Shown: piece by piece, positions 9-60,604 of the stretch
Layout of the letters: each line of letters opens with the position of its first letter
Position numbering within the stretch: position 1 is the stretch's first letter
Assembly: GCF_053078305.1 (NCBI RefSeq)
Contig: NZ_CP166875.1
Reading direction: 5' to 3' (one strand)
DNA length: 64,000 nucleotides
DNA from: a plasmid
The notes under the pieces: model-generated
Told to the model about the DNA's origin: nothing
What the model saw: only the letters and a program-made list of their open reading frames with translations
The model's database searches: none
Program-made: the position numbers and the translations under genes

Positions 9-1067
9 ATGTCCCGGACAGTGGGGATCCTCTGGTTGATTCTGCTTCCCATGACATTCGGCTTTCTGTGGATGTGGTTTCACCATCCGGCCCAGCCCCG
101 TTTTACCCGCAGGCCACTGAATATCCACACACTGCCCCATATTTTTTCAGCTCTGTCACCGGCGATCGCCCCCGTTCTGGCTGATGGAGACAACAACAGA
201 CTCTTCCACGGACAAAAACGTCCCGAGCGCCGTGTCGCACTAACCCCCGAAGTCTTTGTGGAGCAGAACAACCTTATCCGCAACATGCAGCTCGATGTTG
301 CGTCCACACGCCAGTGCTTCATGGCGCAACTGGGGCAACCACTGACCAGCTGGAAAGACATGGCCCCACATGAAAAAGCGCTCTTTGCCATCTTTGGCCT
401 GCAGTTCTTCCTCGGTGACCGGAAAGCAGCGGTAGCCCTGATGAACAACCTCAATCTCTCCTGCAGGCTCAAAAGTAAACGGGACCAGGGGCGTTTCAGC
501 ACGCCGGTGTATTCACTGGCCAGAAACGCCTTTATCCGGGTCATCAAAACAGAAGGCGCACAACAGTGGCTCAGGCAGCACCGTTACGTTCGCAGCGGTC
601 TGGTCTGGCTTTACGCACATGATTTGCGCCTGACGCCTCCGAACTGGCTGTGGCTCAAGGGCGTTGACCGGACGCTCTTCTATGCCCTTCACCGGGCAAA
701 CACCACAAAAGGCTTCATCGAAGGGGCCGGCGTGGTGGCCGTTGCCCGGGCAGAAAATGAAGCCAGCCGTCTCGGCCTCCCCTGCCCGGAACCCTGTGTG
801 GAAGAGGCCATTGAAGGGCTTCGACGGGACATGCTGGGGCTGGGCCTGATATGGGACGAACCTCAGCCAGATCGCGATCGTAAACGTCAGATCAGGACCC
901 GCTGGTCACTCACGGATGACGTGATACCCCGCCGCCATGATAACGACGAAGACACTGACACTGGTGAAACCACCGAAACCACCGAAACCACCGAAACCAC
1001 CGAAACCACCGAAACCACCGAAACCACCGAAAAACAGCATCCCGCCGACAAGGAAAAAGAACAATGA
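9..1067 (+). CDS. trbA: TrbA-like conjugative transfer protein (I-type transfer region); N-terminal hydrophobic segment, C-terminal acidic (ETT)n repeat
   Basis: ATG at 9 confirmed in sequence; first gene of a three-gene set that ends opposite nikB as in IncI/IncL-M plasmids; assignment by synteny, not by motif. Confidence 0.45.
   Translation: MSRTVGILWLILLPMTFGFLWMWFHHPAQPRFTRRPLNIHTLPHIFSALSPAIAPVLADGDNNRLFHGQKRPERRVALTPEVFVEQNNLIRNMQLDVASTRQCFMAQLGQPLTSWKDMAPHEKALFAIFGLQFFLGDRKAAVALMNNLNLSCRLKSKRDQGRFSTPVYSLARNAFIRVIKTEGAQQWLRQHRYVRSGLVWLYAHDLRLTPPNWLWLKGVDRTLFYALHRANTTKGFIEGAGVVAVARAENEASRLGLPCPEPCVEEAIEGLRRDMLGLGLIWDEPQPDRDRKRQIRTRWSLTDDVIPRRHDNDEDTDTGETTETTETTETTETTETTETTEKQHPADKEKEQ
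964..1030 (+). repeat. 9-bp tandem repeat (gaaaccacc) x about 7, encoding (ETT)n inside trbA
   Basis: Directly visible perfect tandem repeats in sequence. Confidence 0.9.
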
Positions 1068-2188
1068 CCATCCACTACACTGCAACACTGAATAATAAAC
1101 ACCTGTCCCTGACCGCCCTGTACCCTGACGGTAATCGGGAGGTGATTGCCATCCTGCCGGTAACAGAACTGGGCGCACTGATTAACCGTAATAACAGGCT
1201 GATGCACCTGTCCTTCAGTTCCCCTTTTCGCGAAATAACCGAAACGGTGCTTGTTGATACCGTTGATGCAGAACGTCCCGGACATCACATCGGCAGAATG
1301 CTCTCAGCGATTGATGCCTGCCTGGATGCCGAATATGCCGGAAAAGGAAAACATCCCTCCCGGAAATATGGCTTCTGGCGGACACTGATGTGTGGCTTTA
1401 TCGCCGGAATTGCTCTGCCGGCGACAGTTGCAGGTTACCACTGGATGAAGGCAGAGCCCCCTTCCACGCTGGCTTACCCTAAATCTCAGGAATGGAGAGC
1501 TGAACCAGTAACCGACACAGAGACACCACGCCCACATACGGAACATCATGTTAACAGCATCCCGGCCCGCCCGGCTCCCACACAGCAGGAACCTTCTTCT
1601 GCCCCCGCCCCGACGGCAGTGACGGAAGAACAACACGTTCAGGCCGCTGAGGCCCGCCGTAATCTGGCCACAGTACTTAAACGCAACGCAGACCGGGGGA
1701 TGTTCACCATTAACCTGTCCACTGGTCATGAACGCACGCTGTACGCCTTCCTTGACCCCGCATGCATCAACTGCCGTCTGCTGGAACCCGCGCTTAAGCA
1801 ACTGGCCCGGGAATTCAGCGTGGTGATTTATCCGGTCTCCGTGATTGGCGGGGAGTCCAGTACAAAGCGGACTGCTCCGCTGCTGTGTGAACCGGACTCA
1901 CAAAAACGGGCGACCGGATGGCATCAGCTGTATTCCGCTGACAGTGGTATGGCCCCCACCGGCGATGCACCGGCCGCACAGGATGGACAGTGTCTGACCG
2001 CCGCACGTGCTGCCATCGATGTCAATAACCAGGCTTTCCGCCAGTTCGGTTTTGGCGGAACCCCCTGGGTGTTATCAGATACCGGCTGGCACCTGCCGTC
2101 CGGCATCCTGAAAGACGCCACTTCCGTTCGCCTCTTCCTGAAAGCAACAGATAGCGAGGAGTATCACAATGAGCCAGCACCACGTTAA
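1064..2188 (+). CDS. trbB: Thioredoxin-fold DsbC-like disulfide isomerase of the transfer system (TrbB-like)
   Basis: CxxC motif (DPACINC) in a thioredoxin-like C-terminal half; overlaps trbA stop; synteny with trbC/nikB. Confidence 0.55.
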   Translation: MTIHYTATLNNKHLSLTALYPDGNREVIAILPVTELGALINRNNRLMHLSFSSPFREITETVLVDTVDAERPGHHIGRMLSAIDACLDAEYAGKGKHPSRKYGFWRTLMCGFIAGIALPATVAGYHWMKAEPPSTLAYPKSQEWRAEPVTDTETPRPHTEHHVNSIPARPAPTQQEPSSAPAPTAVTEEQHVQAAEARRNLATVLKRNADRGMFTINLSTGHERTLYAFLDPACINCRLLEPALKQLAREFSVVIYPVSVIGGESSTKRTAPLLCEPDSQKRATGWHQLYSADSGMAPTGDAPAAQDGQCLTAARAAIDVNNQAFRQFGFGGTPWVLSDTGWHLPSGILKDATSVRLFLKATDSEEYHNEPAPR

Positions 2189-4469
2189 TCCTGACCTCAT
2201 ACACCGCACGGCCTGGGGAAACCCGCTGTGGAATGCACTGCATAACCTGAACATCATTGGTCTGTGTCTGGCCGGCAGTATCATTACGGCCCTGATATGG
2301 CCACTGGCCCTTCCTGTCTGTCTGCTGTTCACCCTGGTCACCTCCGTGATATTCACGCTGCAACGCTGGCGATGCCCCCTGCGTATGCCCATGACGCTCA
2401 GCCTTGATGACCCCTCCCAGGACAGAAAGGTCAGGCGAAGCCTCTTCAGCTTCTGGCCCACCCTGTTTCAGTATGAAGCAGATGAAACATCCCCCGCACG
2501 GGGGATTTTTTATGTCGGTTACCGCCGTATCAATGATATCGGTCGTGAGCTCTGGCTGAGCATGGATGACCTCACCCGGCATGTCATGTTTTTTGCCACC
2601 ACCGGTGGCGGTAAAACAGAAACCACCTTTGCCTGGCTGCTCAACCCGCTCTGCTGGGGAAGAGGCTTTACCTTTGTTGACGGAAAGGCACAGAACGATA
2701 CCACGAGGACAATCTGGTATCTCTCCCGACGTTTTGGCAGGGAGGATGATATCGAGGTCATCAACTTCATGAACGGCGGAAAATCCCGCAGCGAAATCAT
2801 TCAGAGTGGCGATAAATCCCGCCCACAGTCAAACACCTGGAACCCGTTCGCATTCAGCACCGAAGCCTTCACCGCCGAAACCATGCAGTCCATGCTGCCC
2901 CAGAACGTTCAGGGCGGTGAATGGCAGTCACGGGCGATAGCCATGAACAAGGCACTGGTCTTTGGCACAAAATTCTGGTGCGTCCGGGAAGGTAAAACCA
3001 TGTCCCTGCAGATGTTACGGGAACATATGACGCTGGAAGGGATGGCAAAACTCTATTGCCGTGGCCTTGATGACCAGTGGCCGGAAGAAGCCATCGCACC
3101 ACTGCGAAACTACCTGCAGGATGTCCCGGGATTCGATATGTCACTGGTGAGAACGCCGTCAGCCTGGACTGAGGAGCCCCGTAAACAGCATGCTTATCTC
3201 TCCGGTCAGTTCTCGGAAACGTTCACAACCTTTGCCGAAACCTTCGGGGACGTCTTTGCGGCAGATGCCGGCGACATCGATATTCGCGACAGTATTCACA
3301 GCGACCGCATTCTGATTGTGATGATCCCTGCACTGGACACATCGGCCCATACCACGTCGGCACTCGGTCGTATGTTCGTCACCCAGCAGAGCATGATCCT
3401 CGCCCGTGACCTGGGCTACCGCCTGGAAGGCACAGATGCACAGACCCTGGAAGTCAAAAAATACAAAGGCAGCTTCCCCTATATCTGTATCCTTGACGAA
3501 GTCGGTGCCTACTACACAGACCGCATTGCTGTGGAGGCCACCCAGGTACGTTCACTGGAGTTTTCCCTGATAATGATGGCGCAGGATCAGGAGCGAATTG
3601 AAGGGCAGACCTCCGCCACCAACACCGCCACACTGATGCAGAACGCCGGCACCAAATTCGCCGGACGCATTGTCAGTGACGACAAAACGGCAAGAACGGT
3701 GAAAAATGCCGCCGGTGAAGAGGCACGGGCCAGAATGGGCAGCCTGCAGCGCCACGATGGTGTGATGGGTGAGTCCTGGGTGGACGGTAACCAGATCACC
3801 ATCCAGATGGAAAGCAAAATCGACGTGCAGGATTTGATCAGACTGAATGCCGGTGAGTTCTTTACCGTTTTCCAGGGGGATGTGGTGCCGTCAGCCTCTG
3901 TGTATATTCCGGACAGCGAGAAAAGTTGCGACAGTGATCCGGTGGTCATCAACCGCTATATTTCCGTTGAAGCCCCCCGGCTGGAGCGTCTCCGCCGTCT
4001 CGTCCCCAGGACAGTGCAGCGCAGGCTCCCCACACCGGAGCATGTCAGCAGCATCATCGGTGTACTGACAGCAAAACCATCCCGTAAACGTCGTAAAAAC
4101 CGTACAGAGCCTTACCGTATCATTGATACATTCCAGCGCCGGTTGGCAACAGCGCAGACATCACTGGATCTGCTTCCGCAATATGATACAGATATCGAAT
4201 CCCGGGCAAACGAACTGTGGAAAAAGGCTGTGCACACTATCAATAACACAACCTGGGAAGAACGCCGGGTATGTTATATCACACTGAATCGTCCGGAAGA
4301 GGAACACTCCGGTCCTGAAGATATACCTTCAGTAAAGGCGATTCTGAATACCCTGCTCCCCCTGGAGATACTGTTACCGGTCGCTGAAAATAATAAATCG
4401 CAGACAATAAATAATGATCATCCCCAGAAATCATGTGGAGCACAACCAACAACTGACGAAAAATACTGA
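2169..4469 (+). CDS. trbC: Type IV coupling protein (TrbC-like, VirD4/TraG-type ATPase)
   Basis: N-terminal transmembrane helices, Walker A (ATTGGGKTET) and Walker B-like (ICILDEVG); 766 aa; adjacent to relaxase operon. Confidence 0.6.
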   Translation: MSQHHVNPDLIHRTAWGNPLWNALHNLNIIGLCLAGSIITALIWPLALPVCLLFTLVTSVIFTLQRWRCPLRMPMTLSLDDPSQDRKVRRSLFSFWPTLFQYEADETSPARGIFYVGYRRINDIGRELWLSMDDLTRHVMFFATTGGGKTETTFAWLLNPLCWGRGFTFVDGKAQNDTTRTIWYLSRRFGREDDIEVINFMNGGKSRSEIIQSGDKSRPQSNTWNPFAFSTEAFTAETMQSMLPQNVQGGEWQSRAIAMNKALVFGTKFWCVREGKTMSLQMLREHMTLEGMAKLYCRGLDDQWPEEAIAPLRNYLQDVPGFDMSLVRTPSAWTEEPRKQHAYLSGQFSETFTTFAETFGDVFAADAGDIDIRDSIHSDRILIVMIPALDTSAHTTSALGRMFVTQQSMILARDLGYRLEGTDAQTLEVKKYKGSFPYICILDEVGAYYTDRIAVEATQVRSLEFSLIMMAQDQERIEGQTSATNTATLMQNAGTKFAGRIVSDDKTARTVKNAAGEEARARMGSLQRHDGVMGESWVDGNQITIQMESKIDVQDLIRLNAGEFFTVFQGDVVPSASVYIPDSEKSCDSDPVVINRYISVEAPRLERLRRLVPRTVQRRLPTPEHVSSIIGVLTAKPSRKRRKNRTEPYRIIDTFQRRLATAQTSLDLLPQYDTDIESRANELWKKAVHTINNTTWEERRVCYITLNRPEEEHSGPEDIPSVKAILNTLLPLEILLPVAENNKSQTINNDHPQKSCGAQPTTDEKY

Positions 4470-10117: not shown

Positions 10118-10387
10118 CTACTGCTCATCAGGAAACAGCTTTTTCAGTTCTTCACCGGAAAGTCCCGTGACCTCCTGAATCCGTTCCGGCGGCCAGCCTA
10201 TATCCCGCAGCCGGCAGGCTATTTCCCGCGCCACTTCAAGAACCCCTTGTTTAAAACCTTCTTTAAAACCTTCTTTAAAACCCTCGTCGAAACCTTTCTG
10301 TATAAGACGTTCTGCAATCGTCATGCTGTTTGCTCTGCTCCTGCTGGCAAAAAAGCCCGGGATTTTGCCGGGCTTTGTGGTTCTCAT
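10118..10387 (-). CDS. Small protein resembling the C-terminal domain of Rpn nucleases, with KEGF tandem repeats
   Basis: C-terminus (ACRLRDIGWPPERIQEVTGLSGEELKKLF) parallels the C-terminus of the adjacent Rpn protein; 12-bp tandem repeats in DNA. Confidence 0.5.
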   Translation of the reverse strand: MRTTKPGKIPGFFASRSRANSMTIAERLIQKGFDEGFKEGFKEGFKQGVLEVAREIACRLRDIGWPPERIQEVTGLSGEELKKLFPDEQ

Positions 10388-18139: not shown

Positions 18140-18380
18140 TCTCTGCGGCAAGATCAATCCTTAACAGAAAAAAAACCAACAAGCACCCACATAAAAAACA
18201 AAAAACCCAAGCAACACCCACACAAACAAAAAAAACACCCAGAAAACACCCAAAGACAAACAACAATAAAGTAATGAAACCCATAAAACACCCAAAAAAA
18301 GACAAAAAAGATTAAATAGCACTTGAACGCCACCAAAAAAATACTATTATGGGTATAGACACCCAAACGACACCCAAAAG
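18140..18380. other. A/C-rich iterated array (CACCC-type motifs), parC-like centromere candidate
   Basis: More than 10 spaced (A)CACCCA motifs in a very A/C-biased stretch directly upstream of the ParM-like gene. Confidence 0.5.
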
Positions 18381-18388
18381 AGGATTTT

Positions 18389-19360
18389 ATGATTAAGATA
18401 TTCTGTGATGATGGTTCTACAGCGGTTAAGCTGGCATGGTTTGAAAACGGGGAACTAAAAACCCTCATTAGTCACAATTCTTTCAAGGAAGGCTGGAACA
18501 CATCAGGATTTGGCAGTGAGAAAACTTATAATTACTTAGTCGATGGAGAGAAATATGCGTTTGATACACATAACCCATCAGCAATAGTCACAACCAATAT
18601 TGAGTTTCAATATAGTGTAGAAAATCGTCTCGCTGTACATCACGCACTACTACAAACAGGAATGGAGCCTGGGGATGTAGAGCTTTGGGTTACATTACCT
18701 GTATCTGAATATTTCACTACAGATATGCAAGAGAATTCGGATAACATAAGAAAAAAAATAGAAAACCTGAAAAAAGAAATTACACTGAATAAAGGCAGCG
18801 TATTTTCAATCAAGAAAGTTCATGTATTACCCGAGTCTCTACCTGCAGCGTTGACCTCTCTCGAAGAGGATAAAGTCAGTGATCTTGAAACGTCCCTTGT
18901 CGTCGATCTTGGTGGAACAACTCTTGATTGTGGCGCTATAGCTGGCAGATATAAAAATGTAACACAAGTATCCGGAGAACCTGGTCTTGGCGTAACTCTG
19001 GTAACAACGGCGACAATGAATGCCCTGAAACAGGCAGGAACGCATACCAGCTACTATATTGCAGATCAACTGGTTAGAAACAGAAATGCTGATGATTTAT
19101 TCGAAATTGTTGTTAATGACAGCAGTAAAATAGATGATGTGAAATCAGTAATTGAAAACAGTATTACAAGACTTTCAGACAGAGTTATAAATCATTTACA
19201 CTCGTACAAAGGGATAAATCGTATATACATGACTGGTGGTGGTGCGGAACTAATCTACCCTGCAATAAAAAAAGCATTCCCCTTATTAAAGGATAAAGTA
19301 AAAATTTTACCAGATGCGCAATTAGCCCTTGTTATTTCTATTGCTGAAATAAATCGATAA
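18389..19360 (+). CDS. parM: Actin-like segregation ATPase (ParM/StbA family)
   Basis: 323 aa; actin-fold phosphate motifs (DDGST; DLGGTTLD; MTGGGAE); RBS aagagga upstream. Confidence 0.75.
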   Translation: MIKIFCDDGSTAVKLAWFENGELKTLISHNSFKEGWNTSGFGSEKTYNYLVDGEKYAFDTHNPSAIVTTNIEFQYSVENRLAVHHALLQTGMEPGDVELWVTLPVSEYFTTDMQENSDNIRKKIENLKKEITLNKGSVFSIKKVHVLPESLPAALTSLEEDKVSDLETSLVVDLGGTTLDCGAIAGRYKNVTQVSGEPGLGVTLVTTATMNALKQAGTHTSYYIADQLVRNRNADDLFEIVVNDSSKIDDVKSVIENSITRLSDRVINHLHSYKGINRIYMTGGGAELIYPAIKKAFPLLKDKVKILPDAQLALVISIAEINR

Positions 19361-53789: not shown

Positions 53790-54025
53790 AAATACCTCTG
53801 CTTCAGAATTTATTTTTTAATAATATCACAAATTATAAATTAATAAAGATTCTCATCTGATAAATTTGTTTAATAATCGGCCTCTAAAAAATATATTGTA
53901 TCCACTTTGTTGTGGTTCTGACAGAAGTAAATTAATTTGAAGTAAATAAAGCAAAATATCAGAAGAATATATCGGGGCGCACAGTCTATCTCTGCCTTTG
54001 TTTCATGGGATGTTCTTTGTATATT

Positions 54026-54062
54026 TTACTTGCTGTTTACTTGCTGTTTACTTGCTGTTTAA
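54026..54062 (+). repeat. 11-bp tandem repeat (gtttacttgct) x 3
   Basis: Directly visible. Confidence 0.8.
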
Positions 54063-54416
54063 GTATGTATATAAGGAGTGCATTCATTATGCCAATGAAG
54101 CTTGTAAAGAAGAATCCCCGGAGCAAAGTGATTCGGGAGCTTAGCTGTGAGCAAGAGATGGCAGTAAAGGCGGTCTGCGGACTGAAAAAACAGCAACTAC
54201 GGCACTACATGCCCTGGCCAATGATCTTCTCCGGGAAATGCGTGAGTATGATGCATGGTTACAGTGTGACTGTATTCCGGGAGATTCGCCGACCATGAAT
54301 TTTGCTGCTCTTAAAAACAACACGGGAACTTTTTATCTGTCCAGTTTGGATATAGATAATTATTGTACTAATAAGGGAAGCCAACACCAGCCGACAGACC
54401 AGACGCCGCTGCTCAT

Positions 54417-59902: not shown

Positions 59903-60604
59903 ATTTAGTTATCTCCTCAGTATAAAGAGGTTTATTTTCAAACGCTCTTGGTGGAAATGGATTAAAAAACTTTGCTTCTTCATCCACAGGAATACCTGGA
60001 ATTTCTCCATAATAAGGATTGCCAACAGGAAACTTTTCCAGTGAGACATAAAACAATACATTCCAGTTAAAAATCATAGGATCATTACTATCAACATCAT
60101 GGATTATGATGGCGTCCTAAGCCAGTTCTCCAGGAATTAATACATCTGTATGATAAAAACCTGAATAGTAATCACTATTAGTAGAATGTATAGGGCAAGC
60201 AAAGCGATTCATTTTAGTATCTGAGTGCCATGTGGTTGATATTTTTTCTGGTGCGGGAATGATGAAATCTGCTATCATAATATTAAGAAAATACTTTACA
60301 GATATATCCAGTTTCATCTGGTTTCTCCTTTATTGTTATCGTGTACCGGTGCATGACAACATAATCACAGCATGATAATAACAATCAATAACAATCAATA
60401 ACAATAAGCTGTGTCACGTTTACATCATGGAACGGAGGTGCTCCTGTGACCTTTGAGCAGAAAAAAGCCCGGCCATGCCCTGATGGACAGCAAAAAGATG
60501 TGGCGGAGCAATTATGCCCCTCCTCTTCTGCGTATTCTCTGGCGGCTGGGTATCCGGCTTCCGCCATTACCCTTTATGCCGTTCTGGCAGGTCACGCTGT
60601 TGAT

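Follow-up and report, generated by a model that had tools for sequence, protein, structure and literature searches.

A copy-number-variable, in-frame 9-bp tandem repeat in the 3′-terminal part of trbA from IncB/O/K/Z-type I-complex plasmids

The trbA locus and its repeat array

The stretch of plasmid DNA analysed here, 64,000 nucleotides in full and called the window below, opens inside trbA, which encodes a protein of the DotM/IcmP family that is a subunit of the coupling complex of I-type (type IVB) systems. Its open reading frame, Pfam matches and the annotation of relatives assign the 3′ 1,067 nt of this gene to positions 1–1067 of the plus strand. The 5′ 249 nt (about 83 codons) lie outside the window, and the full-length gene with seven repeat units, as in relative L001, measures 1,317 nt and encodes 438 amino acids; as the window starts 249 nt into trbA, the ATG at window position 9 is not the true start. 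Downstream on the same strand lie a homologue of trbB (DsbC/thioredoxin-like; 1064–2188) and trbC (DotL/TraD-like coupling protein; 2169–4469), assigned from their reading frames, domain searches and the annotation of the collinear relative L023, which together with trbA form a TrbABC module. The trbB start and the trbA stop share an ATGA overlap at 1064–1067, seen in the sequence and in annotated CDS ends. Beyond trbC, the L023 annotation places a relaxase gene, nikA/mobA and the leading region, and the window reading frames and this annotation agree on a trbA-trbB-trbC order adjoining nikBA/oriT. Plasmids closest to the window type as IncK2/Z, IncI-gamma/K1 or IncI1/B/O, all of them MOBP/MPF_I, and their typing and annotation identify the window as part of an IncB/O/K/Z-type I-complex plasmid (IncK2/Z-type). 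Upstream of trbA, at about 0.5–1.3 kb, relatives also differ in the number of copies of dqlB, a DinQ-like (pnd-like) type I toxin gene that is present twice in some and once in others, a polymorphism seen in L002, L006 and L012.

The conserved part of the protein is a DotM_C-like cytoplasmic domain spanning residues ~186–358 of the full-length protein (306–824, plus strand), which includes the invariant R307. The window sequence scores 162.6 bits against Pfam DotM_C (PF23127; cutoff 27), covering profile positions 2–171 of 172, and a phmmer search against PDB DotM chains aligns TrbA residues 186–358 with Legionella DotM residues 200–362 (E = 2.5e-7). The first-pass annotation had called the protein TrbA-like, a name borne out by this domain match, by the trbA annotation of relatives and by the trbB and trbC genes next to it. 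Alleles with 1, 7, 9, 10 and 13 units score 72.3–72.6 bits against the NCBIfam DotM/IcmP equivalog NF033890, below its cutoff of 230, which marks TrbA as a relative of DotM and not as a Legionella-type equivalog. N-terminal membrane-spanning helices may be present: in an AlphaFold2 model of full-length TrbA from L001, long helices are predicted at residues 12–32, 34–52, 55–73 and 92–111.

Comparison with better-known relatives sets off the end of the protein from the rest. Legionella DotM/IcmP (PDB 6EXA–6EXE, 6SZ9) has a homologous all-helical cytoplasmic domain in which R314 corresponds to TrbA R307, but it ends ~18 residues past the domain, without a repeat tail. The IncI1 TrbA of R64 and pJIE174 shares the trbA-trbB-trbC synteny, the DotM_C domain and 76–77% identity over residues 1–394, and it is needed for conjugation (PMC10286972). 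The pJIE174 protein, however, has 402 residues and ends in ...SLTEDILPRTPATDNEF (...PRTPATDNEF), lacking both the ETT unit described below and the extension that carries it, and the IncI1 gene is separated from trbB by an 18-nt spacer in place of the overlap found in IncB/O/K/Z-type plasmids. The trbA knock-outs of pMS7163B (PMC10286972) and of the IncK plasmid pCT (PMC6868128) were unable to conjugate.

Tandem Repeats Finder reports a single outstanding array in the 64-kb window, at 966–1032, where 7.4 copies of period 9 match at 100% and without indels (score 134; consensus unit GAAACCACC). Read directly, it consists of seven perfect in-frame units (966–1028, plus strand) followed by a partial eighth unit, GAAA (1029–1032), in the context ...gacactggt (GAAACCACC)x7 gaaaaacagcat..., and it ends 36 nt upstream of the trbB overlap. 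Each unit, GAA ACC ACC, encodes Glu-Thr-Thr in the frame of the reading frame that ends at 1067, so that the units make up (ETT)7, residues 406–426 of full-length TrbA, and the translated C-terminal end reads ...DNDEDTDTG(ETT)7EKQHPADKEKEQ*. About seven perfect gaaaccacc repeats encoding (ETT)n had been noted here at first pass, and the seven full units confirm that reading; the coordinates given for them, 964–1030, were 2 nt off at each end, an immaterial difference. Because of the first GAAA and the GAAA of the partial unit, a direct repeat of 4 nt brackets the unit also in alleles with one copy (GAAACCACCGAAA), such as that of L004, GGT GAAACCACC GAAAAACAG. A three-unit probe matched the window within the array only and gave 0 matches in 100 dinucleotide-preserving shuffles of the window, so the array is not a product of chance. 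Products of the other frames through it, (KPP)n on the plus strand and (GGF)n, (VVS)n or (RWF)n on the minus strand, were rejected because they come from short reading frames contained within trbA and trbB, whereas the ETT frame continues conserved TrbA sequence.

Other repeats occur elsewhere in the window. An A/C-rich non-coding stretch at 18160–18390 holds many (A)nCACCCA-type repeats, reported by Tandem Repeats Finder with period 31 at 18168–18252 and with period 11 at 18232–18252, 18279–18299 and 18358–18378. It stands directly upstream of a reading frame starting at 18389 (MIKIFCDDGSTAVKLAWFENG...) that by eye looks like a ParM/StbA-type partition gene, and the stretch is possibly a centromere or iteron region. 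Near here, too, the window diverges from L023, its best PLSDB relative. A perfect 11-bp tandem repeat, TTTACTTGCTG x3.4, lies at 54025–54061, apparently between genes and just upstream of an ATG at 54090, where it could be slippage-prone or regulatory, and a perfect 10-bp repeat, AATAACAATC x2.9, is intergenic at 60377–60405. Judged by collinearity with L023, the imperfect 12/24-bp tandem repeat at 10245–10296 (CCTTCTTTAAAA x3.2) falls inside a small hypothetical gene (10118–10363, minus strand) of the leading region.

Copy number across related plasmids

Relatives were collected with a 601-bp query (window positions 700–1300), which matched 471 plasmids in PLSDB and, in RefSeq, 392 replicons of 380 E. 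coli genomes. Of the 397 places matched in these RefSeq genomes, one is chromosomal, and one genome carries four places; these cases suggest an I-complex transfer region that is integrated or present more than once. Length classes were determined from evenly spaced samples of 40 of the 471 PLSDB rows and 60 of the 392 RefSeq rows. In every one of these 100 sampled rows, match and query lengths were apart by exact multiples of 9 bp, corresponding to unit numbers (n) of 1 to 13. The PLSDB sample was spread over all of these classes (n = 1, five plasmids; 2, five; 3, three; 4, four; 5, three; 6, seven; 7, three; 8, two; 9, two; 10, two; 11, one; 12, two; 13, one), as was the RefSeq sample (n = 1, nine; 2, fifteen; 3, two; 4, six; 5, five; 6, four; 7, three; 8, four; 9, three; 10, two; 11, three; 12, two; 13, two). 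Clonal oversampling of EHEC-type plasmids, and not a mutation bias, may underlie the skew towards one and two units.

We then read the arrays themselves in 19 relatives: 18 loci fetched to span the length classes and plasmid pZPK-H21, which was found with a synthetic 25-unit query and carries 16 pure units. Between them these relatives hold every n from 1 to 13, plus 16, and in all 19 the length difference lies wholly within the array. The first-pass annotation had expected copy number to vary between isolates and had named identical numbers in all related sequences as the result that would count against it; the relatives show the opposite. All units are identical in 16 of the 19 arrays; ACT variant units occur in the other three (L014, L015 and L017), and in L015 the variant unit has itself been multiplied to three copies. 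A second allele background, ...GGCTCAGATACTGGT (GAAACCACY)n GAAACCCGG..., has one to four units only, with ACC-to-ACT interruptions. None of the arrays examined is frameshifted. No zero-unit allele was seen among the 19 relatives read or in any sampled match, all of which keep the tail with at least one ETT unit, and this could reflect constraint. An exact look-up of synthetic TrbA sequences with n = 0 and n = 14–17, in two backgrounds, found no match in a collection of 15 billion proteins, from which the real n = 7 control is absent as well.

Array length was set against the surrounding sequence by comparing 3,660 nt of flank (960 nt upstream and 2,700 nt downstream). The window, with seven units, has 0 flank differences from L002, with 11, and one from L006, with six. 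Loci L003, L004 and L005 carry 13, 1 and 3 units on flanks identical to each other, and L001, L009 and L010, with 7, 9 and 5 units, are separated by 1–3 flank differences. Similarly, pZPK-H21 (L024, 16 units) and p4809.66 (L008, 12 units) have 0 differences in 3,400 nt of flank. Up to 12 units' difference thus separates loci with 0–1 substitutions in 3.4–3.7 kb, and such different lengths on identical flanks indicate that the array changes faster than point substitutions accumulate. As the flank-compared loci were picked to span the length classes, the comparison establishes the phenomenon and not a rate.

Within epidemiologically linked sets of plasmids the array can also be constant. Twelve units are found uniformly in at least 13 Danish farm and slaughterhouse IncK2 plasmids and in plasmids KR905384 and KR905389, of poultry and human origin; four of four 108.8-kb plasmids have 13 units; and five of the large plasmids sampled (146–160 kb), from Homo sapiens and bovine sources, all have two. 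For the first 25 kb of the window, the best PLSDB matches reach 72–73% coverage at ~97% identity, with no end-to-end match.

The C-terminal tail and the source of its length variation

The array lies within a lineage-specific acidic tail, predicted to be disordered, outside the conserved domain. In the AlphaFold2 model, built on a 29-sequence alignment, the domain is helical and confidently predicted; residues 375–438 (873–1064, plus strand) have pLDDT values of 30–48 and no secondary structure. From residue ~398 onwards the sequence is an extension confined to IncB/O/K/Z-type TrbA, RRHDNDEDTDTG(ETT)nEKQHPADKEKEQ, whose coding end overlaps the start of trbB. The IncI1 and Mixta proteins and 25 further homologues end before the array, most of them in a short acidic stretch closed by a Phe. 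Outside IncB/O/K/Z, most TrbA homologues share this ending as a conserved motif, as in ...GQEDDEQPF, ...PATDNEF and ...GDDDDLIF, and in IncB/O/K/Z it is replaced by the ETT extension. The last 12 residues, the frame and the 4-nt trbB overlap are kept in every variant examined (the 19 relatives and the window, with annotated CDS ends). With a unit of three codons, a change in length never shifts the frame. An on/off phase-variable locus was considered and rejected, since frame and trbA/trbB overlap are kept in the 19 relatives and the window and folding predictions show no change in pairing at the start of trbB.

The arrangement has partial parallels among known repeats. The 24-bp repeats of the S. 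aureus spa X-region and the 18-bp SD repeats of clfA and clfB are in-frame VNTRs that encode low-complexity, non-globular segments, vary by slippage and serve as typing markers. They belong to surface-exposed proteins in which length affects display or immune recognition, whereas the trbA array is plasmid-borne and encodes part of a cytoplasmic tail, in a conjugation protein of the inner membrane. Contingency loci of Haemophilus and Neisseria carry tetra- or pentanucleotide coding repeats that change by slipped-strand mispairing, and, as these units are not multiples of three, the resulting frameshifts turn the genes on or off; the 9-bp unit of trbA, in contrast, never changes the frame. TraD of F-like plasmids is a coupling-complex protein with a variable-length Gln/Pro-rich repeat in its C-terminal part, but TraD is the VirD4-type ATPase itself, of another family, with another repeat and on another plasmid group.

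Taken together, the array is very probably a hypermutable, in-frame replication-slippage VNTR at the 3′ end of trbA, with a tail whose length is probably near neutral. During replication, possibly including conjugative strand synthesis, nascent and template strands would misalign by whole 9-bp units, and ETT tripeptides would be gained or lost. Every such event would leave the frame, the C-terminal end of TrbA (EKQHPADKEKEQ) and the trbA/trbB overlap (ATGA) intact; it would alter tail length alone and never switch the gene off. Long, pure, variable arrays beside short, interrupted, stable ones are the signature of slipped-strand mispairing, and the co-occurrence here of long pure variable arrays and short interrupted ones points to this process. 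Slippage, which the first-pass annotation had also proposed, is thus suggested as the cause by the pattern of variation in the sequences. Near-neutrality would likewise follow from the position of the tail, an extension beyond the conserved DotM-like domain in which changes of length should be tolerated. Of the 471 PLSDB matches, 464 are typed conjugative, plasmids of all n included, and pCT, whose 1,263-nt trbA has a single unit, was described as highly conjugative (PMC6868128).

Several other explanations of the length differences deserve weighing. That they are sequencing or assembly artefacts, with repeats collapsed or expanded, could be supposed because tandem repeats are known to cause assembly errors and many records come from mixed technologies. 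It is effectively refuted by the exact multiples of 9 in 100 of 100 sampled rows, by arrays of at most 144 bp, below typical read length, by the uniformity of units in 16 of 19 arrays with ACT variants in three and a frameshift in none, and by the agreement of independent isolates of one plasmid lineage (n = 12 in at least 13, n = 13 in four). Homologous, unequal recombination between plasmid copies or co-resident related plasmids is improbable as the main source of change. I-complex backbones are mosaic, no PLSDB plasmid matches the first 25 kb of the window end to end, and in L008 and L022 an array in the first (allele-A) context stands between flanks resembling those of the second (allele-B) group, all of which would fit recombination; arrays of 9–144 bp, however, are short substrates for RecA-dependent exchange, and changes between loci with 0 flank differences fit both mechanisms. 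A role at the RNA level, in which array length would alter mRNA structure or spacing before the trbB start and so tune TrbB translation, appears highly improbable. The proximity of the array to the trbB ATG (36 nt) and the 4-nt gene overlap make it conceivable, but the distance from array to Shine–Dalgarno sequence and start is constant with n, and partition-function calculations (ViennaRNA) give a mean pairing probability of 0.22–0.24 over the trbB SD-to-AUG region for all n from 0 to 20, the A/C-rich array itself being mostly unpaired at two or more units (mean pairing 0.17–0.32; 0.55 at n = 1).

The remaining alternative concerns function. The length of the acidic (ETT)n tail might act as an adaptive tuning knob that modulates the coupling complex, setting conjugation efficiency or substrate choice, with the variation under selection; for example, the tail could reach back to the basic, Glu-rich-peptide-binding groove of the DotM-like domain in the same TrbA chain or in an adjacent subunit. 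In Legionella, DotM uses Arg patches to bind acidic Glu-rich peptides, which are secretion signals, and R314 is the sole highly conserved residue of these patches (PMC5802825); this residue aligns with TrbA R307, invariant in 29 homologues. An acidic C-terminus is moreover a family trait, as the short acidic tails with terminal Phe in most TrbA homologues indicate, and a zero-unit allele was never seen. We nevertheless consider selected tuning distinctly improbable: on one background all n from 1 to 13 occur at comparable frequencies, without a preferred value; IncI1 and other conjugative relatives function without the extension; and the single-unit plasmid pCT conjugates well (PMC6868128). 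Its most specific form, by analogy with DotM, would make the (ETT)n tail a length-tunable acidic pseudo-substrate that folds back onto the basic groove of TrbA around R307, and this we regard as a long shot. If true, slippage would generate variants with different gating or substrate selectivity, and the array would be a contingency locus for conjugation efficiency. The evidence as a whole favours a slippage repeat in a tail of nearly neutral length.

Annotation, typing and biological meaning

Array length affects how these plasmids compare in searches and appears to affect how they are named. Gaps in the array alone lower the BLAST identity of the 601-bp query from 100% to about 92–95%. In NCBI annotation, most alleles with up to nine units are named 'IncI1-type conjugal transfer protein TrbA'. 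PLSDB rows with ten or more units carry 'hypothetical protein' or 'conjugal transfer protein TrbA' instead, and the corresponding RefSeq rows 'DotM-related subunit' or 'conjugal transfer protein TrbA', one nine-unit allele also being called DotM-related. The change of name with n can be seen in the trbA CDS of L002, L003, L008, L011, L022 and L024, where alleles of ten or more units are also called 'secretion/conjugation apparatus DotM-related subunit'. No NCBIfam HMM behind this change was found: the sole library model, for the DotM/IcmP equivalog, gave every n the same score, below its threshold. The change probably stems from a BLAST rule or from a coverage or length criterion in the naming rule. 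A full-text literature search that included the repeat sequence found no published description of the polymorphism in its coverage, which leaves out most subscription journals.

The array is a candidate single-locus VNTR marker for subtyping IncB/O/K/Z resistance and virulence plasmids (IncK1, IncK2, IncZ and IncB/O), which have no pMLST scheme and are often very few SNPs apart. It splits plasmids with identical 3.5-kb flanks and is constant in linked sets, with 12 units in poultry-associated IncK2 plasmids and 13 in a hospital set. For the protein, the variation indicates that the TrbA extension tolerates 45 residues of length difference, which would be useful for tagging or engineering this essential subunit of the coupling complex. 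Biologically, unless the tail turns out to have a function, the array is a slippage repeat of an ordinary kind.
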